Assembly: GCA_037134915.1 (NCBI GenBank)
Contig: JBAXLJ010000002.1
Location: 192,935-256,934 of the forward strand
Length of the DNA stretch: 64,000 nt
Reading direction: 5' to 3'
DNA from: Candidatus Falkowbacteria bacterium
Lineage (GTDB): Bacteria; Patescibacteriota; Patescibacteriia; Patescibacteriales; UBA12465
Of this stretch, positions 5,653-62,173 are shown in pieces. The translations under genes were made by a program, and so were the position numbers. Positions within the stretch are counted from its first letter, which is position 1, and every line of letters begins with the position of its first letter. The notes beneath the pieces are model-generated. The model did no database searches. It saw nothing but the letters and a program-made list of their open reading frames with translations, and had not been told where the DNA came from.

Positions 5653-6162
5653 ATGAAAAAAACCTGGCTTTTAATTTTACCGCTTATTTTTTTAGTTTCG
5701 GGTTGTTCGTCTGTTTCTAAAACAGAACCAGCCGCGCCCGATACTACAGGTTTAAGCAATGCGGCGACCGCTTGTGTGATCCCGGCGACCACTACCGAGG
5801 ATATTTCAGCCAGCACTACTAAAAGCATTTTGCCGCCTGTTAGCCAAGAAGAAGTTAAAAAAACTTTTACTTATGAAGACGAGGATATGGGCGTGAAGTT
5901 AAAATATCCCGGCTCCTGCTATTTTAATAAAGGTGTCTTCCAGTGTTCGGATTTTACTTTAAGTGTTTGGGTTCTAGATAGCATTGCTAAACCTAGCTCG
6001 ACTCCAGAGAAAACTTTTAAAGATGGGCAAACCCAGATAAAGTATGTCTTTATTCACGGTAATAAAATTTATGCTTTGATGGCCTGGTATGATGGTCAAA
6101 ATCGCAGCGATTTAGAAAAGGTGATTGATAAAATTGCTAAGAGTTTAAAATTTACTAGATAG
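5653..6162 (+). CDS. Lipoprotein, unknown function
   Basis: The signal peptide ends in lipobox LVSGC (LILPLIFLVSGCSS). Confidence 0.6.
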   Translation: MKKTWLLILPLIFLVSGCSSVSKTEPAAPDTTGLSNAATACVIPATTTEDISASTTKSILPPVSQEEVKKTFTYEDEDMGVKLKYPGSCYFNKGVFQCSDFTLSVWVLDSIAKPSSTPEKTFKDGQTQIKYVFIHGNKIYALMAWYDGQNRSDLEKVIDKIAKSLKFTR

Positions 6163-6170
6163 TCAGTTAT

Positions 6171-6203
6171 AAAAGAGCCTTCTAACTTAGAAGGCTCTTT
6201 TTT
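6171..6203. terminator. Bidirectional terminator between convergent genes
   Basis: AAAAGAGCCTTC-taactta-GAAGGCTCTTTTTT, with an A-tract on one side and a T-tract on the other. Confidence 0.75.
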
Positions 6204-25280: not shown

Positions 25281-25658
25281 CGTTATTCGGGTAAGCGGAC
25301 GATCGCTTCGTGTTAAAACGGAGAGGAAAGTCCGGACTCCATTTAAAGGGCAGTGGATAACGTCCACCAGGGGTAACCCTAGGGAAAGTGCCACAGAGAC
25401 AATACTAATTTTAGCTTGCTAAGATGAAAGGTGAAAAGAAAGAAGGTGTCAACTTGTTTGGCTACTTTTTTCGACTAGCGGTGACGCTAGATTCGCGGTA
25501 AACCCTGCCTGGAGCAAGGACAAATTCCAATTCAAGTGAGCTGGAAAAAAAGTGGTCCGCCAGATCTTATTGGCAACAATAAGACTAGATAAATGATCGT
25601 CCTGTTTAGATTTTTATTTAAGCAGACAGAATCCGGCTTATAGCTTGCCCTGATAACA
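25281..25658 (+). ncRNA. rnpB: RNase P RNA, bacterial type A
   Basis: Conserved blocks GAGAGGAAAGTCCGGACTCC, GGGTAACCCTAGGGAAAGTGCCACAGAGA and ACAGAATCCGGCTTA. P1 pairs 25282-25296 with 25643-25657. P2 pairs GGACGATC (25297-25304) with GATCGTCC (25595-25602). Confidence 0.9.
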
Positions 25659-32463: not shown

Positions 32464-32499
32464 AAAACAGGCTTTTTAGAAGAAGCCTGCTTTTATCTG

Positions 32500-32583
32500 T
32501 GCCGCGGGAGGGAATCGAACCCTCATGATATCGCTACCACACGAGTTTGAGTCGTGCGCGTCTACCAATTCCGCCACCGCGGC
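32500..32583 (-). tRNA. tRNA-Leu (anticodon CAA), class II with long variable arm; CCA not encoded
   Basis: Reverse complement GCCGCGG-TG-GCGG-AATTGGTAGA-CGCG-CACGA-CTCAAAC-TCGTG-TGGTAGCGATATCAT-GAGGG-TTCGATT-CCCTC-CCGCGGC-A. A hairpin plus T-run follows at 32492-32462. Confidence 0.93.
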
Positions 32584-55511: not shown

Positions 55512-56273
55512 ATGATTAAAAAATTCTTACAGGATATTGGTTTAAATGAAAAAGAAGTCAGCATCTATTTGGAATTGCTCCGAGTTGATAATAACTCAGT
55601 TTTAGATTTGGCCAAGAAGACTGGTATTTTGCGAACTTCGATTTATTCCATTATTGAATCATTAAAAGAGAAGGGCTTGGTTTCCGAAATTGAAGTTGGC
55701 AAGAAAATTAATTTCCAAGCAGAACCGCCAGAAAGAATTGCGGCCTTTATTGAATCACAGCGATTAAAAGTTGAAGAACAGTCTCAACTGGCTAATGAAT
55801 TTATTCCGCAGCTTCGAAGTTTGTCCCGTCAAACTGGAGAAAAACCAGTGGTTAAAGTTTATGAAGGGCGCGAAGGTATCTTCAAGGCTAACGAAGAATC
55901 ATTCGGATACGGAAAATCAAACCAAAATGACACTGCTTACTTTATCTACCCTTACGATTTAATTGAAAATCTATTTTCTGGACAGGAAATAAAAAAATCC
56001 AGTACACAGCGAATTAATCGCCGCATTAAATCACGAGCTATTTATACTTATTCTAAGGGCGACCGACCTAAAAGCGAAGACTCTATCAGATTAAAAATAG
56101 ACGGCCAAAAATATCCGATTAAGTGCGATATCAGCATCTTTAAAGATATGATTCGCATCCACACCTTAGGCAAATCTCTTTCGTCTTTAGTGATAAAAAG
56201 TCAAGATATCGCTGACACTCTTAAGTCTTTATTTGAAGCTGTCTTTGATAGTCAAAAAAAGCTTGAAAAATAA
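55512..56273 (+). CDS. TrmB-like HTH transcriptional regulator
   Basis: N-terminal wHTH LGLNEKEVSIYLELLRVDNNSVLDLAKKTGILRTSIYSIIESLKEKGLV. Confidence 0.7.
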   Translation: MIKKFLQDIGLNEKEVSIYLELLRVDNNSVLDLAKKTGILRTSIYSIIESLKEKGLVSEIEVGKKINFQAEPPERIAAFIESQRLKVEEQSQLANEFIPQLRSLSRQTGEKPVVKVYEGREGIFKANEESFGYGKSNQNDTAYFIYPYDLIENLFSGQEIKKSSTQRINRRIKSRAIYTYSKGDRPKSEDSIRLKIDGQKYPIKCDISIFKDMIRIHTLGKSLSSLVIKSQDIADTLKSLFEAVFDSQKKLEK

Positions 56274-56532
56274 AAAAAGGGTCGCCTGCTTGTGCAAACG
56301 ACCCCATTACCAAAATTAAAACTTTTTTCGATTAGCCCCTCTAAGGAGCTTCATTAAAATTTTCCAGAAAACAAATTTTTTTAATCACCCACTTTCGGCC
56401 TCCTTTCTTAAAAATTAAATTTACAAATCACTATAAGAGACATAAGACCCACTTAGGGCGAAGGTGGCGCTGATGCAGCACCAACCTTCGTTAAGTTTTA
56501 GTCTTGCATGGCTCCTCCTTTTTTAAGTTGTT
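56272..56532 (-). ncRNA. Candidate ~260-nt non-coding transcript (promoter-to-terminator unit without ORF)
   Basis: Minus-strand promoter at 56567-56539. Minus-strand terminator GGGTCG-n14-CGACCC plus TTTTTTT (56304-56272). Internal hairpin CGAAGGTTGG..CCACCTTCG. Two strong AGGAGG motifs, each followed by a 3-codon mini-ORF. The longest ORF is ~14 codons. Confidence 0.4.
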
Positions 56533-56538
56533 GCTAAG

Positions 56539-56567
56539 AATCTAACATATAAAAAAATTATTGTCAA
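56539..56567 (-). promoter_or_regulatory. Sigma-70-type promoter (minus strand)
   Basis: TTGACA (56567-56562), a 17-nt spacer, then TAGATT (56544-56539). Confidence 0.45.
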
Positions 56568-56803
56568 TATTATTATTAAAACGTTTTATTTTAAATACAG
56601 AAAATATTTTAATATTAAACAAAAAAACTAGTAAAGCGGTTACTACGTCAAAAGTTTTCCACAGATATAGCGATAGTTTCTAATATTTTTTAATTTTTTG
56701 GTTATTTTTATAAAAGAGTTTATAATTTAAAACATTTTATTTTATACAAAGTCCTATTAATTAGGCCTTTTTTATTATCTATAATTAAAAGTGACAAATA
56801 CTA

Positions 56804-56832
56804 TTGACAAATATTTAGATATAATCTAGACT
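56804..56832 (+). promoter_or_regulatory. Promoter-like element upstream of the structured leader
   Basis: TTGACA (56804-56809), a 17-nt spacer, then TAGACT (56827-56832). A TATAAT at 56820-56825 has the wrong spacing. Ambiguous in AT-rich DNA. Confidence 0.35.
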
Positions 56833-56861
56833 CTCTTTACGAGTTATTTTGGTTCTTTTTA

Positions 56862-57133
56862 AAAGGCTTAATGCAGTTGCTAATACAAACGGAGTATTAG
56901 CATAGCCTTTCGAGCACGTGATTATTAGCTATCTTAAGCAAAAGCATATCCGTCTTGCCGAGCTCGCCGAGCTACAAGTATGATAATGCGACGGGATACC
57001 CCCAATTTAAGGGGGTGCAGGGAAAAGCCCTGCTAGTTCGAAAAATCGACATAAAAGTCGAAAACTGTTTGGGGCAATTTTTCGAAATTGCCCCTCAACT
57101 CTAGTTTCTAAATACTTGGAAACTGAAGTTGAG
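56862..57133 (+). promoter_or_regulatory. Highly structured non-coding leader (seven consecutive hairpins) upstream of the 57160 operon
   Basis: Hairpins at 56862-56910, 56947-56998, 56999-57015 (CCCCC/GGGGG), 57017-57033 (GCAGGG/CCCTGC), 57046-57061, 57071-57094 (10 bp + UUCG loop) and 57095-57133. None is followed by a U-tract. Confidence 0.5.
56928..56973 (+). repeat. Tentative diverged copy of the 28-nt tRNA-end-like element
   Basis: ..CTATCTTA[agcaaaagca]TATCCGTCTTGCCGAGCT compared with copy C CAATCTTATCCCTGTCTCCGAGCA. CCGAGCT is duplicated (56958-56964 and 56967-56973). Confidence 0.25.
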
Positions 57134-57159
57134 TTTGAACCTTTAAAATTAAATATAAG

Positions 57160-57774
57160 ATGAAAAAGAAAGTTAAACGCCCGGAACTGAAAGATTTATT
57201 TTGCGATCAAATAAATCAGTTGCTAAAGCTCGGCTATCCATCTGAGATTATCAGCCGTTTTAAATCTAAAGAAACTGATTTACTAGATGTTTGCGAGAAC
57301 TTAGATTTTTTAGAAGAACAAACACCCTTTATGCCGGTGGTGCCTGAAAAAGTTTTAGCTTATCGCGATCAAGCGAGTCTTGTCTCTAAAATGCCTTATC
57401 TTAAAAACACTTTAGATGTTCGAGGCTGGCGCCATCATTTACTGGAGAAACTTCAAAATACCTATATTCCAAATTTTTCCAGCCAACCCTATTACCTTGT
57501 TGGAGTAGTTATAGCCGAGGAACCCGAATTAAACGGTCTTTTAAAAATAAATCATGAGGAAGGATTTGCAATCACCGCTTTAAAACCAGAGCTGTTAAAA
57601 CATCAACGAATGCTAGCCGCTACGGCCTGCGATTGGGAAGGTGACGAAACAGCCGTGATTCATTTAACGGTCTTAGAAGCGGGCTTTAACGAATATTATA
57701 TTGCCGCTGATTGGCGCACCGCCAAAAGATGTCAGAACCTCTCTTATGGTTTTTGCCAAAGTAGATTAATCTAA
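57160..57774 (+). CDS. Hypothetical protein (204 aa), no recognised domain
   Basis: Long ORF following the structured leader. First of three co-oriented genes. Confidence 0.55.
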   Translation: MKKKVKRPELKDLFCDQINQLLKLGYPSEIISRFKSKETDLLDVCENLDFLEEQTPFMPVVPEKVLAYRDQASLVSKMPYLKNTLDVRGWRHHLLEKLQNTYIPNFSSQPYYLVGVVIAEEPELNGLLKINHEEGFAITALKPELLKHQRMLAATACDWEGDETAVIHLTVLEAGFNEYYIAADWRTAKRCQNLSYGFCQSRLI

Positions 57775-57801: not shown

Positions 57802-58302
57802 ATGAAAGCATTATTTATTTTGATTATTAGTCTTATGTCCTTCTTTTCGCTAAATTCTTTAGCTGATGATAACAAGGCTTTCTTAGAAAGTTTTGTTAAG
57901 ACCGTTAAATTAAATGAGCACCGGTTTCAGGACATCAATTTAGTTTATCCGGGGGACACGGTCATGGTTGTTGGCAAGGGGATTACTCCAATTGCAATCT
58001 TGCCAAGAGATAGCTTACCTGGTTATCATGATTGCGTTTGGTACGCGGTCAAGCGCTCTCTAAGACAAAGCAACGGGGTTCCAAAGTTAAAACCGCTTAT
58101 AAATAAAATTGATGAAAAAATTAATTTTAATTTATCAGATTTTATTAAAGATAACCCGGCTTTAATAATTACCTCTTTACTGGCAGGGATTTTTCTATTG
58201 CTACTTTTATTAATAATACTGATGGCCGTAAGAAGGCCGATAATTATTAATAATAATTTATCCTGTCATCATCCGCCAACCGTACCACCGACCACGGTTT
58301 AA
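57802..58302 (+). CDS. Hypothetical exported, C-terminally anchored protein
   Basis: Signal peptide MKALFILIISLMSFFSLNSLA. C-terminal TM ALIITSLLAGIFLLLLLLIILMAV and a Pro-rich tail. A 10-bp hairpin without a U-tract follows (58310-58334). Confidence 0.55.
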   Translation: MKALFILIISLMSFFSLNSLADDNKAFLESFVKTVKLNEHRFQDINLVYPGDTVMVVGKGITPIAILPRDSLPGYHDCVWYAVKRSLRQSNGVPKLKPLINKIDEKINFNLSDFIKDNPALIITSLLAGIFLLLLLLIILMAVRRPIIINNNLSCHHPPTVPPTTV

Positions 58303-58368: not shown

Positions 58369-59166
58369 ATGGAAAAATTCAGAATTTTAGTAATCGATGA
58401 TAAAATAGCTAATTTAGAAGCGGCCGAAAAACAGTTTGCCGAAAAAAACGTTGAATTAATTGTGATGGGGACCTATGCCGGAGCTGTCTACTTTATTAAC
58501 AATGAACATTTCGATATCGTCCTGTCAGATTTAATGTTGCCAGGAGATGACGAGGGTATAAGTTGTAACAACCCGGAAATTGGTCAAGATGTGCCTTATG
58601 GTTTATTGCTAGCCATCCTCGCCAAAAATAGAGGCGTGGAAAAAGTGGCCATTTTAACCGATATCAGTCATCATGCGGGACCAATTGCCTGGTCAATGGA
58701 CAAACTTATGGGTATTAATCCTTTTGTTAGCTGCTTTAGTCATAAAAATTGGTTAGAAGTGGCTTCAAAATTTGTTGAGATAGGATCTGTTTCCGCTGAA
58801 ACTGAGGTACCATTTCACACGCCAACCGTTTTATTAGCCGGCCACGGTGATGATTTTAAAAGAAGTATTCAAAAAGAGATTTCAAGTAAATTTAAAGTAA
58901 TTTTTATTGAAGAGGAGTCTAATTTTGCCAGAACTTTTAATCGATTCATTGGTTATAAGCCGAATTTTACTATAATTGTTGGCGAGATAACCAAGGAACT
59001 GAAGGAAAGCAGCTTGAATATCGGGCGTATTTTTAAAGATTTGCAAGGTGTAAAAACTTCGGAACAGAAAGTTTTTGCTCTAGGTTTTTTGCCTCATAAT
59101 CATCCCGATTATGTCCAGCTGCCGCTTAGTATTAGCGAGATTCTAACACGAACCGGTTTAGTATAA
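58369..59166 (+). CDS. Receiver-domain protein with uncharacterised C-terminal half
   Basis: FRILVIDDK.. and FDIVLSDLMLPG show an intact acidic pocket and phospho-acceptor Asp. The C-terminal ~130 aa (TVLLAGHGDD..KVIFIEEE..FTIIVGE) may be a second degenerate flavodoxin-like domain. No output domain recognised. Confidence 0.7.
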   Translation: MEKFRILVIDDKIANLEAAEKQFAEKNVELIVMGTYAGAVYFINNEHFDIVLSDLMLPGDDEGISCNNPEIGQDVPYGLLLAILAKNRGVEKVAILTDISHHAGPIAWSMDKLMGINPFVSCFSHKNWLEVASKFVEIGSVSAETEVPFHTPTVLLAGHGDDFKRSIQKEISSKFKVIFIEEESNFARTFNRFIGYKPNFTIIVGEITKELKESSLNIGRIFKDLQGVKTSEQKVFALGFLPHNHPDYVQLPLSISEILTRTGLV

Positions 59167-59177
59167 ATTTTAAAGTA

Positions 59178-59206
59178 AGCGCCAGCAAAAAGTTGGTGCT
59201 TTTTTT
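59178..59206 (+). terminator. Rho-independent terminator
   Basis: AGCGCCAGC-aaaaa-GTTGGTGCT (two G-U pairs) plus TTTTTT. Confidence 0.7.
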
Positions 59207-59266: not shown

Positions 59267-59337
59267 TCGGGGATCGTCTAATGGTAGGACTCAAGCCTCT
59301 GAAGTTTGCTATCTTGGTTCGAATCCAAGTCCCCGAG
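59267..59337 (+). tRNA. tRNA-Gln (anticodon CUG); CCA not encoded
   Basis: Acceptor TCGGGGA/TCCCCGA with U1-A72 and discriminator G, as in bacterial tRNA-Gln. Anticodon stem CAAGC/GTTTG with loop CTCTGAA. T arm CTTGG-TTCGAAT-CCAAG. Confidence 0.9.
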
Positions 59338-59350
59338 CAAAACACAAAAT

Positions 59351-59375
59351 CAGGCTTTAAAAGCCTGTTTTTGTT
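59351..59375 (+). terminator. Terminator of tRNA-Gln
   Basis: CAGGCTT-taa-AAGCCTG plus TTTTTGTTT. Confidence 0.75.
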
Positions 59376-59473
59376 TGAATATTAGATATATTTTAAGTTC
59401 AAACGTGGTTCGAACATTTTTTGGATATTTATGTCATTTTATAGAAAACCCCCGATTTTATTGGCCTATATTA

Positions 59474-59489
59474 GTTCGAATCCCGTTCC
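59474..59489 (+). repeat. Degenerate T-loop-like fragment (GTTCGAATCCCGTTCC)
   Basis: Matches the tRNA T-loop region but lacks the CCGAGCA end. A second fragment, GGTTCGAAC, lies at 59407-59415. Confidence 0.35.
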
Positions 59490-59510
59490 TATTATTTTGA
59501 AATTAAATCA

Positions 59511-59519
59511 TGCTATAAT
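59511..59519 (+). promoter_or_regulatory. Extended -10 element TGCTATAAT (leaderless geometry)
   Basis: The -10 ends 8 nt before the ATG at 59528. Confidence 0.45.
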
Positions 59520-59527
59520 ACTAAAAT

Positions 59528-60259
59528 ATGAGTAAAAGAGAACTAAAAAATGTAACATTATTAGGCATTGACTGTGTCGATGTTGAGAGACTTAGATTGG
59601 CAGTGAGTATTTGTCAAAACAATTTTGAGTTTGCAGAAGTTAAAATTCTAACTTCTTTAGATGTGGCTTATAAAGAAAATGTTGTTAAAATAAAAGCTAT
59701 AAACTCGACTGAAGAATATTCCAATTTTATAATTAATGATCTTTGGGGATATATCAACACGTCTCATGTCCTACTAGTTCAATATGATGGTTTTATACTC
59801 AACCCTGAAGCCTGGACTGATGAATATTTAGATTACGATTATATTGGCGCACCTTGGTTAGTAGCTGACTGGTCAGTTACTAATTTTTCCTTCCCTCAAG
59901 AACTAGTTGGAAAATTTGTAGTTGGCAATGGTGGCTTTAGTTTAAGAAGTAAAAAGATTTTAGCACTAACATCGCAATTATCTAAAACTGGAAAAATCGC
60001 TAAGTTACACCCAGAAGATGTTTCTATTTGTGTTTGGTATCGGCAACTTTTTGAGGATGAGGGGATAAAATTTGCACCCCTTACCTTAGCAAAAAAATTT
60101 AGTTTTGAATCAGAGGATAAAGATAATTATTTTTGGGATGGACAATTTGGTTTTCACGGTCTTAAATGGACCGATATATCAAAATGGGCCAAAATACACC
60201 CTGAATATAAAATAGATAATCCGGCGATTGCGAAGAGTGAAAGATTAAAATGGCTATAA
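59528..60259 (+). CDS. DUF5672-like protein (putative glycosyltransferase-like fold)
   Basis: LLVQYDGFILNPEAW..YDYIGAPW..VGNGGFSLRSKKI resembles the DUF5672 pattern as I recall it. Needs an HMM check. Confidence 0.55.
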   Translation: MSKRELKNVTLLGIDCVDVERLRLAVSICQNNFEFAEVKILTSLDVAYKENVVKIKAINSTEEYSNFIINDLWGYINTSHVLLVQYDGFILNPEAWTDEYLDYDYIGAPWLVADWSVTNFSFPQELVGKFVVGNGGFSLRSKKILALTSQLSKTGKIAKLHPEDVSICVWYRQLFEDEGIKFAPLTLAKKFSFESEDKDNYFWDGQFGFHGLKWTDISKWAKIHPEYKIDNPAIAKSERLKWL

Positions 60260-60768
60260 AAAGTATGAAAATAAAATTAGACGAGAAAGTAATGTCCGGA
60301 CTCCGCTGGATAGTCACTATTCTGGATAGAAATAAAATACCCTATAAGATTGGTGGCGGTTTTGCTGCTAAAGTTTATGGTTCGCCCAGAGAAGTGAACG
60401 ACATCGACATATCTCTCTCTGGTGAATATTTTGATATGATTGTTTCTGAAGTTTCTGATTATATCACGGCTGGGCCAAAGCATTATCTAAATGAAAAATG
60501 GGATTGCAATACTTTATCGGTGAATTATCAAGGGCAAGATATTGACATGACAGACGTTGATACTTTAAAAATGACTAATTTAGAAAAGACTGAATGGTTT
60601 AATGTTAAAGAAAAGAGGTTATATGATGGCATTATTACGGATATTAATGGGGTTGCCGTTTCCATAATGGATCCTCGTGATCTTATTTCATATAAAAAAT
60701 TACTAGGAGGAGAGCACCAACAAATTGATGTTGATGCTATTCAGATCTATTTAGATAAAAATGTTTAG
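60250..60768 (+). CDS. Minimal nucleotidyltransferase-fold protein (Lnu/ANT(2'')-like family)
   Basis: IPYKIGGGFAAKVYGSPREVNDIDISL carries the G-[GS]-x(9-13)-D-x-D pattern of Pol-beta-type NTases. Overlaps the upstream gene by 10 nt (ATGGCTATAA). Confidence 0.6.
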   Translation: MAIKSMKIKLDEKVMSGLRWIVTILDRNKIPYKIGGGFAAKVYGSPREVNDIDISLSGEYFDMIVSEVSDYITAGPKHYLNEKWDCNTLSVNYQGQDIDMTDVDTLKMTNLEKTEWFNVKEKRLYDGIITDINGVAVSIMDPRDLISYKKLLGGEHQQIDVDAIQIYLDKNV

Positions 60769-60856
60769 TATTATTAAGAATTACCAGGATTAAGGAGAAG
60801 TGCTTTTTAAATCAGTGGATTGAGCCCCTAATTCTCATCTAATCTTAGCCACACTA

Positions 60857-60884
60857 GTTCGAACTTCGTCCACGACCCCGAGCA
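60857..60884 (+). repeat. 28-nt tRNA-3'-end-like element, copy B
   Basis: GTTCGAACTTCGTCCACGACCCCGAGCA, followed by the hairpin AATAGCAC-gttta-GTGCTATT plus TTTGTT (60894-60919). Confidence 0.7.
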
Positions 60885-60916
60885 CGTTGACAAAATAGCA
60901 CGTTTAGTGCTATTTT

Positions 60917-60925
60917 TGTTATAAT
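60917..60925 (+). promoter_or_regulatory. Extended -10 element TGTTATAAT
   Basis: Directly after the copy-B hairpin, 26 nt upstream of the ATG at 60952. Confidence 0.5.
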
Positions 60926-60951
60926 AAAAAGAAAATTAACAATTTAAATAT

Positions 60952-61281
60952 ATGACTATGAAAATTTTTAATAAGTTAGTAAGGGATAAAATTCCTGAAA
61001 TAATAGAGGCAGAAAATAAAATTCCTAAAATAAAAATTTTGAGTAACGATGAATATAAATTAGAACTACTCAAAAAATTAGTCGAAGAATCTAAAGAAGT
61101 CTTGGAAGCTAAAGATGATAAAGAAGATTTGATTAAAGAACTAGGAGATTTATTGGAGGTAATAGACTCCACTGTTAAAACTTTTAGTCTTAATTTAGAA
61201 GACATCTTAGTTTTAAAGGATAAAAGAAAACAAGAGAGAGGCGGATTCGATAAACAAATTTTCTTAGAAAGCGTTGAATAA
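60952..61281 (+). CDS. MazG-like/PRA-PH-like nucleoside triphosphate pyrophosphohydrolase
   Basis: KLVRDKIPEIIE.., ELGDLLEVI and ERGGFDKQIFL match the all-alpha NTP-PPase family. 109 aa. Confidence 0.75.
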   Translation: MTMKIFNKLVRDKIPEIIEAENKIPKIKILSNDEYKLELLKKLVEESKEVLEAKDDKEDLIKELGDLLEVIDSTVKTFSLNLEDILVLKDKRKQERGGFDKQIFLESVE

Positions 61282-61319
61282 TAACTAGGGGCATATATTT
61301 GCCTCTTTTTCATAAAAAA

Positions 61320-61347
61320 GTTCCAATCTTATCCCTGTCTCCGAGCA
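61320..61347 (+). repeat. 28-nt tRNA-3'-end-like element, copy C
   Basis: GTTCCAATCTTATCCCTGTCTCCGAGCA, followed by the hairpin ATAAGCT-attact-AGCTTAT plus TTTTTGTT (61357-61384). Confidence 0.8.
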
Positions 61348-61479
61348 CTAATAAAAATAAGCTATTACTAGCTTATTTTTTGTTGGATAGAGTAATCAAA
61401 ATATTTCTAAATGGTGATATATTTTAGCTAATATTCATATAAATAGTAGCTGTTCCAAAGTAAGATATGTATCTATATA

Positions 61480-61508
61480 TTGACATATATTATAAAATAT
61501 GATATTAT
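61480..61508 (+). promoter_or_regulatory. Sigma-70-type promoter of module 3
   Basis: TTGACA, a 17-nt spacer, then TGaTATTAT. Homologous to the promoter at 62218. Confidence 0.5.
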
Positions 61509-61625
61509 TTAATCATTAAAATAGAACACTAACAAACAAGATTAGATTTGATTAATCACCGAATTCATCTAAAAAGGTGTGTTTAGTAATTAATCAAATA
61601 TATTAATCTTTAAAATAAAAGAAAA

Positions 61626-62075
61626 ATGGAAGCACTCAGTTGTAATTTTTCAGACGTAGTTATTAATAGCTACAAAAATAATGTTCATAAAATGCAGAAC
61701 ATTCCTGATACTGGCTTTAATGAAGCTACTCAAGGAAGTTTTAATTTTATTGGCATTATTGCTCATAGCGGTATCGTTGGTGATAGTGATGATTTATTAT
61801 TACTTGACCCAGAGATTAGTCAAAAGTTAAATGATTTTGACGTCTGCGTTGAGATTCTGTATCAACTCGGAAAACTCACAGGAAAAAATTTCTCTAGTTG
61901 GCAAGAAGCTCTGATTGATTCTGATTATTATCAGAAAGGTCAGTTGATGATTTTGCAAAGACATTTTTCTCCAGTGGTTTGGACAGGCAAAACAATCCTT
62001 TGCTCTCCAAACGATAAATTAATTCAATACGCAATTCAACGCGTAAATGAAGTAAGGGAAAGAAGAAATAGATGA
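61626..62075 (+). CDS. Hypothetical protein (149 aa)
   Basis: ORF with its own promoter and a long 5'-UTR hairpin (61546-61599). No motif recognised. Confidence 0.5.
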   Translation: MEALSCNFSDVVINSYKNNVHKMQNIPDTGFNEATQGSFNFIGIIAHSGIVGDSDDLLLLDPEISQKLNDFDVCVEILYQLGKLTGKNFSSWQEALIDSDYYQKGQLMILQRHFSPVVWTGKTILCSPNDKLIQYAIQRVNEVRERRNR

Positions 62076-62145
62076 GAATAAACATTCTTCATCAAGAAGC
62101 CTCATAGCTATATTAGTTATCGGGGTTTTTTATTGTCCAAAAACC

Positions 62146-62173
62146 GTTCCAATCTTATCCCAGTCTCCGAGCA
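62146..62173 (+). repeat. 28-nt tRNA-3'-end-like element, copy D
   Basis: GTTCCAATCTTATCCCAGTCTCCGAGCA (27/28 identical to copy C), followed by ATAGACT-aatttt-AGTCTAT plus TTTTTGTTTT (62184-62213). Confidence 0.8.

Follow-up and report, generated by a model that had tools for sequence, protein, structure and literature searches.

Hammerhead ribozymes flank genes in bacterial polycistronic transcripts, among them those of prophages and mobile islands, and have been proposed to cut these transcripts into gene-length RNAs (Perreault et al. 2011, PMC3088659). Here we describe a structured non-coding leader of ~320 nucleotides (nt) from a Candidatus Falkowbacteria metagenome-assembled genome of the Candidate Phyla Radiation (CPR)/Patescibacteria. 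The leader is located in a 64,000-nt stretch of contig JBAXLJ010000002.1, referred to as the window, between a conserved promoter and an orphan open reading frame (ORF) of 204 amino acids (aa), the protein encoded at 57160 being 100% identical to an NCBI entry under that organism name. Like the hammerhead-punctuated transcripts, loci related to this leader contain type III hammerhead matches with a full core, placed between the units in blocks of co-oriented small orphan genes, an arrangement consistent with a long transcript that could be cut into units. Unlike those transcripts, the window itself is without a hammerhead, a large non-coding RNA appears as one of the units, most boundaries are formed by a hairpin-hairpin module and not by a ribozyme, and no phage genes were recognised. 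It is very probable that the region represents a genuine conserved RNA structure of the plus strand. We tentatively propose that this new structured RNA may open a punctuated polycistronic transcript as its non-coding first unit, combining a pseudoknotted recognition domain with a boundary module.

Fold and covariation of the leader RNA

An earlier inspection of this DNA without database searches (the sequence-only reading) had described seven consecutive hairpins, H1 to H7, in the leader, and all seven complementarities do lie at the coordinates it gave (Table 1; H2 is listed there in its revised form). The 326-nt stretch 56840-57165 folds at -107.4 kcal/mol, compared to -72.9 ± 5.3 kcal/mol for dinucleotide shuffles, the control that reading had named (z = -6.49, with none of 100 shuffles folding as well). 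Evaluated singly, H1, H4, H5, H6 and H7 gave z values of -3.6, -3.0, -4.4, -3.6 and -6.2, respectively, and H3 was left out of this test because its shuffles are identical to H3 itself. The H2 helix as first drawn (56947-56998, TATCCGTC pairing with GACGGGATA) did not hold up, having z = -0.93, with 37 of 200 shuffles as good and the pairing found in the window only. The minus strand of the same 326-nt stretch has a z value of -7.14. Since it folds equally well, folding energy alone cannot assign the strand.

Homologues of the leader were located via synteny. One locus, L001, is an ENA relative reached through the family of the 204-aa protein; it is syntenic with the window and its intergenic region is recognisably homologous. 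The TrmB-like protein encoded upstream of the leader is well conserved, and its nearest relatives led to three more RNA loci, L032, L054 and L063. The five distinct copies of the RNA core are found at 56860-57145 in the window, 2648-2979 in L001, 6560-6887 in L032, 2941-3272 in L054 and 3273-3655 in L063. L032 is identical to L038 and L039, L054 shares 91% identity with L032 over the region, and L063 is the divergent RNA locus. Four other loci with TrmB-like relatives (L033, L034, L064 and L066) have kept the spacer and the promoter and carry a different cargo.

The homologues were aligned by MAFFT from the sequences only, without fitting to any structure. In the H6-H7 part (alignment A6), the 26 pairs are 98.4% paired and 10 of them changed on both sides; none of 500 shuffles matched this, and slid controls showed 35-59% pairing with 0-2 pairs changed on both sides. 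For the 58 nested pairs of the H1-H5 part (alignment A5), pairing is 95.3% and 16 changed on both sides, again with 0 of 500 shuffles matching and with slid controls at 29-42% pairing and 1-4 such pairs. When 63 pairs are counted for H1-H5, 95.7% are paired and 18 changed on both sides, which brings the compensatory pairs to 28 in total (10 + 18); over this combined set 0 of 500 shuffles match, and slid controls reach 30-59% pairing with 0-4 such pairs. The covariation in relatives that the sequence-only reading had listed among its checks is present.

The conserved fold is not a row of seven independent hairpins. H1, H4, H5, H6 and H7 are supported from the earlier description, and a long-range helix and a pseudoknot were found in addition. 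In H1, five of the nine inner-stem pairs changed on both sides. The long-range helix has two such pairs, and one G·U pair in it is kept in four of the five sequences. The conserved H2 hairpin is the most conserved sequence block across the five homologues, with ~45 nt near-invariant. The pseudoknot between the H1 loop and the H2 bulge has five pairs, and all 25 cells in the five sequences are paired (100%); in L063 it is formed by GUGGA with UCCAC, so that two of its five pairs differ on both sides. At the H3 site the relatives have a longer, variable hairpin (columns 162-216 of alignment A4 in L001, L032 and L054). In H4 both sides changed in three of six pairs, and G·U intermediates are seen on the plus strand; H5 is missing in L063. 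H6 is 100% paired with changes on both sides in 5 of 10 pairs, as are found in 5 of the 16 pairs of H7. A covariance model of H1-H2 (R2) detects exactly one copy per RNA-bearing locus. It should be mentioned that L001, L032 and L054 possess a 430-nt 5' extension that is also structured, with 10 pairs changed on both sides among these three sequences; it terminates in a module-like hairpin pair and brings the RNA to ~770 nt, as compared to the core of ~300 nt. A riboswitch-type alternative pairing of 57038-57047 with 57078-57087 was found in the window only and was rejected as a by-product of the TTCGAA palindrome.

The strand of action was evaluated from the promoter and from wobble pairs. The promoter-like element noted previously is a 10/12 match to a sigma-70-type promoter, and its pattern of TTGACA, 17 nt and TAnnnT is kept in L001, L032, L054 and L063 as well as in L037, a locus discussed below; transcription would start near 56839 judging from its position. 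A duplicated TGACAAATA motif also precedes the promoter in L001, L032, L054 and L063. Promoter and motif stand ahead of the RNA or of units upstream of it. These repeats could be an operator, perhaps for the adjoining TrmB-like regulator. There is no terminator-like site on the plus strand within the 56840-57160 leader, nor does a U-tract follow H6 in any homologue, in agreement with the earlier view that the hairpins are not stacked terminators; other parts of the window do have canonical terminators, one on the minus strand at 56305-56278 and one on the plus strand that ends the operon. For the same pairs, 96.3% of cells are paired on the plus strand versus 92.1% on the minus strand, and the G·U cells number 22 versus 5. 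The G·U bias, the conserved promoter and the same-strand hammerheads in relatives together favour an RNA-level function on the plus strand. These three observations, one hammerhead lying upstream of the RNA, and the 28 compensatory pairs sustain the earlier suggestion of a structured RNA, cis-regulatory or processed.

The two-hairpin module and candidate hammerheads in related islands

A covariance model of H6-H7 (R1) recovered the five expected copies and further plus-strand copies in the same type of island. The strong further copies score 35-37 bits, with rough E-values near 1e-8, and two weaker ones score 20 and 21 bits (Table 1); the 64-kb window contains one copy. Matches of R1 on the minus strand overlap the same sites because H7 is near-palindromic. 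In L060 the module is placed after ORFs and also after an ORF-less structured stretch, and L063 has two tandem non-coding units with a module at the end of each. By layout, the module pairs a GC-rich hairpin with a second structure directly behind it, without a spacer.

The same layout, with a candidate hammerhead as the second structure, is seen in L032, L054 and L063. In L032 a full-length type III match on the same strand (6124-6176, 41.6 bits, E = 4e-7) carries the CUGAUGA and GAAA elements and a GUC site, and is ~390 nt upstream of the RNA core. The type III match in L063 (5365-5419, 40.4 bits) is further down the island, and L054 keeps the L032 hammerhead sequence, as read from the sequence. 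Each hammerhead is directly abutted by an upstream GC-bottomed hairpin (L032 6101-6176; L054 ~2481-2555; L063 5343-5419), and the matches sit between units of orphan-gene islands adjoining the TrmB-like gene. In L001, where the upstream ORFs are deleted, the promoter lies directly against the RNA and only a decayed hammerhead is left, which has lost its 5' half. H7 itself was considered as a hammerhead and ruled out, the catalytic core being absent. It is noted that a conserved small ORF of ~51 aa (C-terminus ...ERVTIIKTPMGNR), for which no family match was found, recurs upstream of structured RNA in these islands (L032 5828-5983, L063 3050-3202, L034 5400-5552).

H6|H7 occupies exactly the position that in relatives is taken by a hairpin and a type III hammerhead, so that a new motif which cleaves itself or guides a nuclease is conceivable here. 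This belongs to a bolder and rather unlikely reading, in which the leader would be the first example of a new class of pseudoknotted CPR non-coding RNAs that act as non-coding 'cistrons' of punctuated island transcripts, with H6|H7 as the hammerhead-equivalent boundary element.

Proposed role and competing explanations

The gene most closely associated with the RNA is that of a 166-aa predicted secreted or membrane protein. Its family co-occurs with the RNA in 5 of 5 loci, the proteins of L001, L032, L054 and L063 having 40-64% identity to the window protein, and has no counterpart in L037; it is rare, a search at E ≤ 1e-3 yielding 22 representatives among 1.84 billion. The RNA and the 166-aa gene are separated by another gene in three loci. 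The 204-aa family is smaller still, with four members: two proteins among 5.8 billion clusters and two more found by translated scans. Scanning GTDB genomes and JGI metagenomes with this family returned only L037 and duplicates of L032, and the 204-aa protein had no Pfam, PHROG, PADLOC or NCBIfam match. The 204-aa gene is dispensable, as L054 has the RNA without it. The junction for the missing gene is in a short CTTAAAA repeat, which flanks the gene in L032.

We propose that a transcript would start at the conserved promoter, pass through the ~320-nt non-coding head and run on into the 204-, 166- and 265-aa genes. The first part of the head would be a single-copy recognition domain made up of H1, then a junction that holds H2-H4 and is closed by the long-range helix, and then H5; the pseudoknot, in which ACGGA of the H1 loop pairs with UCCGU of the H2 bulge, would lock it. 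H6|H7, a generic module of two hairpins, would be the second part. In related islands, where coding and non-coding units may be joined in one long transcript, this module or a hairpin directly followed by a type III hammerhead may mark where one unit gives way to the next. The recognition domain could bind a specific partner, either an island protein or a small ligand, while the boundary module could delimit and protect the RNA as well as the 5' end of the mRNA that follows. The stability or expression of the operon with the 166-aa membrane-protein gene would be set in this way.

Several points weigh against this proposal. The five sequences represent approximately three independent lineages, so the counts of paired cells are not counts of independent events, and both of the pseudoknot changes come from one lineage, L063. 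The E-values of the covariance models are rough. The hammerhead scores in the relatives are below the Rfam gathering threshold of 48.5 bits, which makes these hammerheads candidates, and not even a permissive search (E ≤ 10) detected a hammerhead (RF00008) in the window region. The 204-aa gene can do without the RNA, since L037, a GTDB representative, has the promoter, the homologue and a 130-nt untranslated region without the RNA. The AlphaFold2 model of the 204-aa protein has a pLDDT of 37 and is unusable. The island proteins are all orphans. Transcription as such, where the transcript ends, cleavage at H6|H7, a binding partner and a consequence for the operon are things that we infer.

A possible, if somewhat unlikely, explanation is an unprocessed cis-regulatory leader, in which H1-H5 would be a metabolite aptamer or a protein site whose occupancy alters elongation or translation initiation. 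The sense position between a conserved promoter and ORFs with no terminator, the compact pseudoknotted fold with its highly conserved core, and the 5/5 linkage with the 166-aa family are all what such a leader would show. However, no expression platform was found, with no U-tract after H6 and an alternative pairing that is window-specific, and the genome has no Shine-Dalgarno sequences to sequester (24 genes checked). In L063 the ORF follows the core only after ~400 nt of additional structured RNA plus another module, the gene intervening before the 166-aa gene in three loci does not fit a leader of that gene, and H6-H7 is also found after ORFs in L060. It is decidedly unlikely that the structure is passive, with no specific recognition function, either as a 5' mRNA stabiliser or insulator or as what remains of a larger element that is being lost (770 nt in L001 and ~1.5 kb, ORFs included, in L032). 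Messenger RNAs can be stabilised by stable hairpins at the 5' end, the window has the most reduced version, with L001 and the window resembling successive deletions of an L032-like arrangement, and L037 manages without the RNA. On the other hand, the long-range helix, the pseudoknot and the near-invariant ~45 nt of H2 have been kept though the flanking proteins are 40-57% identical. The conserved tertiary pairing and the near-invariant H2 exceed what simple hairpins would require for stabilisation.

The sequence-only reading had also considered a DNA-level site, with H2 containing an att-like copy. Such a function, whether as an attC-like or att recombination site or as a single-strand replication origin of an integrated element, is now very improbable. 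It is true that the island is variable, with gene gain and loss between close relatives, that structured elements come after cassette-like units, and that H7 of the window has the boxes CCTCAAC and GTTGAGT, matching the attC consensus RYYYAAC and GTTRRRY (R') at 6/7 and 7/7 positions. These boxes are kept in 0 of 4 homologues, being CTCTAC and ATTAGAG in L001, L032 and L054 and CACCTCT and AGAGGTG in L063, and H7 was rejected as an attC site. The att-like repeats instead proved to be direct copies of a tRNA-Gln 3' end (TCC..GTC.CCGAGCA) located downstream of that gene at 60869-60884, 61332-61347 and 62158-62173, and 0 of 100 shuffles give four matches. No copy occurs within 56862-57159 at ≤3 mismatches of 16, and H2 has only CCGAGC in common with them. 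No integrase is found among the neighbouring genes in the flanks examined, neither a GC-skew switch nor a cluster of DnaA boxes is present, the wobble pairing is specific to one strand (22 versus 5 G·U cells), and the same-strand ribozyme in relatives together with the conserved promoter points to RNA. That the leader is a coding region or a set of chance hairpins is scarcely credible. A 49-aa ORF with a TTG start does exist at 56955-57104 and is the longest in the leader, in agreement with the earlier report of no ORF of at least 60 aa. It was rejected as a gene since indels of 38-41, 7 and 6 nt between the homologues break every reading frame; the substitutions are compensatory in helices, not synonymous, and no shuffle folded as well as the leader.

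CPR/Patescibacteria genomes are tiny, and a conserved 300-770-nt RNA with a pseudoknot and a long-range helix beside a rare membrane-protein gene means that scarce genome space is spent on an undescribed RNA-level function. The islands mix orphan ORFs, non-coding units, candidate hammerheads and the two-hairpin module, and offer a test case for transcript punctuation without Shine-Dalgarno sequences, at least in the window. The immediate impact is limited by the narrow distribution (five loci) and the absence of a functional handle.

Genomic setting and relation to known RNAs

Table 1. Coordinates of the leader RNA, its helices and associated features. Positions are those of the window unless a related locus is named.
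Feature	Position	Strand	Details
Non-coding leader, RNA family (~320 nt)	56839..57159	+	core 56862-57133
H1	56862..56910	+	outer stem AAAGGCU/AGCCUUU; inner stem 56878-56886 with 56894-56902; 7-nt loop
Long-range helix	56909..56915 with 57036..57042	+	UUCGAGC with GUUCGAA; encloses H2-H4
Conserved H2 hairpin	56943..56984	+	CAUA/UAUG, five-base bulge UCCGU, CUUG/CAAG, AGCU/AGCU
Pseudoknot	56889..56893 with 56949..56953	+	ACGGA (H1 loop) with UCCGU (H2 bulge); loop-bulge type
H3	56999..57015	+	CCCCC/GGGGG
H4	57017..57033	+	GCAGGG/CCCUGC
H5	57046..57061	+	UCGAC/GUCGA
H6	57071..57094	+	GC-rich 10-bp hairpin, UUCG loop; first half of two-hairpin module
H7	57095..57133	+	long AU-rich hairpin with internal loop; abuts H6 with no spacer; second half of module
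Further R1 copy	L063 3958-4052	+	37 bits
Further R1 copy	L060 3889-3980	+	35.6 bits
Further R1 copy	L060 4279-4368	+	35 bits
Further R1 copy, weaker	L001 2479-2567	+	21 bits
Further R1 copy, weaker	L060 6127-6217	+	20 bits
Tandem TGACAAATA repeats	56792-56800 and 56805-56813	+	overlap -35; candidate operator
Sigma-70-type promoter	56804..56832	+	TTGACA, 17 nt, TAGACT; 10/12 match
TrmB-like regulator gene	55512-56273		upstream of ORF-free gap
204-aa orphan ORF	57160..57774	+	first gene 3' of the RNA; ATG at 57160
166-aa predicted secreted or membrane protein	57802..58302	+	family member in all 5 RNA-bearing loci
265-aa protein	58369..59166	+	N-terminal receiver-like domain; final gene of operon
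Operon-ending terminator	59179..59206	+	canonical hairpin and T-run; read from sequence
tRNA-Gln	59267-59338		3' of operon terminator

The hairpin-rich leader is contained in an ORF-free gap of 886 nt (56274-57159). Its GC content is 0.46 at 56900-57099 versus 0.20-0.23 in the preceding spacer, and the contrast remarked upon in the sequence-only reading is thereby confirmed. When 15 island proteins were compared to Pfam, PHROGs, PADLOC and NCBIfam, the receiver domain was the only match. The neighbouring genes in the flanks examined encode GreA, LysRS, the TrmB-like regulator and orphans. None of 24 genes checked (window 39779-63923) is preceded by a Shine-Dalgarno-like motif, and translation initiation in this organism therefore appears to be Shine-Dalgarno-independent.

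A conserved 18-mer, GTCAAAAGTT(T/A)TCCACAG, at 56649-56666 is kept in the AT-rich spacer of all related loci and holds a consensus DnaA box (TTTTCCACA in the window; TTATCCACA in L032, L054 and L063). The spacer was considered as oriC and rejected because the window shows no GC-skew switch and only four DnaA boxes in 64 kb, with no cluster besides the one conserved box; the 18-mer could be a regulatory DnaA site. Just 5' of the RNA promoter, a conserved A-run, hairpin and T-run at 56745-56778 resembles a bidirectional terminator, and its stems covary in relatives. Downstream, 59267-62173 resembles tandem small islets integrated at tRNA-Gln, which carry DUF5672, nucleotidyltransferase-like and MazG-like genes and one orphan, with no integrase seen. 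Housekeeping RNAs in the window include a class A bacterial RNase P RNA (25287-25656, 226.9 bits) and tRNA-Leu(CAA) at 32499-32583.

A second candidate small RNA lies at 56275-56532 on the minus strand, divergent from the leader RNA. It has its own promoter (TTGACA at 56567-56562, TAGATT at 56544-56539) and an intrinsic terminator (56305-56278), and its first ~95 nt are conserved in eight loci beside the TrmB-like gene. GGAGG and a short spacer precede a three-codon mini-ORF, AUG CAA GAC UAA (56509-56498), which has persisted despite changes to synonymous codons and in the stop codon (CAG GAU UAA in L064, UGA in L063) and is followed by a covarying 13-bp hairpin with G·U pairs on the minus strand. 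The GGAGG is odd in view of the checked genes of this genome, which are without Shine-Dalgarno sequences. No Rfam match was found for this candidate.

The Rfam search that the sequence-only reading had recommended was run, and no family matches the leader. At the gathering threshold of Rfam 15, the window has only RNase P and two tRNAs, all elsewhere; at E ≤ 10, matches in 56200-57400 are noise (≤23 bits versus thresholds of 39-102), among them one to IS605-orfB-II at 15.9 bits versus 88, which was dismissed. For the homologues L001, L032, L054, L060, L063 and L064, no match covers the core and only the hammerheads in relatives appear. The RNA has no blastn match to phages and plasmids. In DNA pattern scans of viral contigs, one pattern gave 30 matches, about the estimated chance level, another gave 14, all in unrelated phage coding sequence, and two more specific patterns gave 0. 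A repeat or miniature inverted-repeat transposable element was rejected, the leader hairpins not being repeated elsewhere in the window, as were an omega RNA (IscB/TnpB) and an IS110 bridge RNA, the downstream proteins having no Pfam or NCBIfam match to these families. In the papers covered by a literature search there was no description of the RNA or of hammerheads in CPR/Patescibacteria.

H6|H7 is similar to intercistronic processing and stabiliser hairpins, such as the RNase III sites of phage T7 and repetitive extragenic palindromic elements, in recurring between cistrons, in keeping structure more than sequence and in having no U-tract. It differs from them in that its two abutting hairpins, a GC-rich 10-bp hairpin and then a CUC...GAG stem, match no searchable described motif. 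As in integron attC arrays, structured elements end the cassette-like units of a variable array and H7 of the window fits the R' consensus, but R'/R'' are not conserved, there are two hairpins instead of one, the wobble pairs are strand-specific, and IntI is lacking. Riboswitches and protein-binding leaders share with this RNA the sense 5' position, a pseudoknotted conserved core and one associated gene family, whereas here there is no terminator or start-site-sequestering platform and the distance to the associated gene varies.

The large bacterial RNAs ROOL, GOLLD, OLE, raiA and HEARO provide a further comparison. Like them, the RNA extends over hundreds of nt with many helices, long-range pairing and covariation, has no known function, and resides in a variable or mobile region, here with a tRNA gene 2 kb away. 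It shows no covariance-model similarity to them, has a very narrow distribution, and is predicted to be co-transcribed with ORFs, in contrast to a free-standing gene with its own terminator. With a distribution so far of five loci, the RNA belongs to the conserved structured bacterial RNAs of unknown function, and it is new within that kind.

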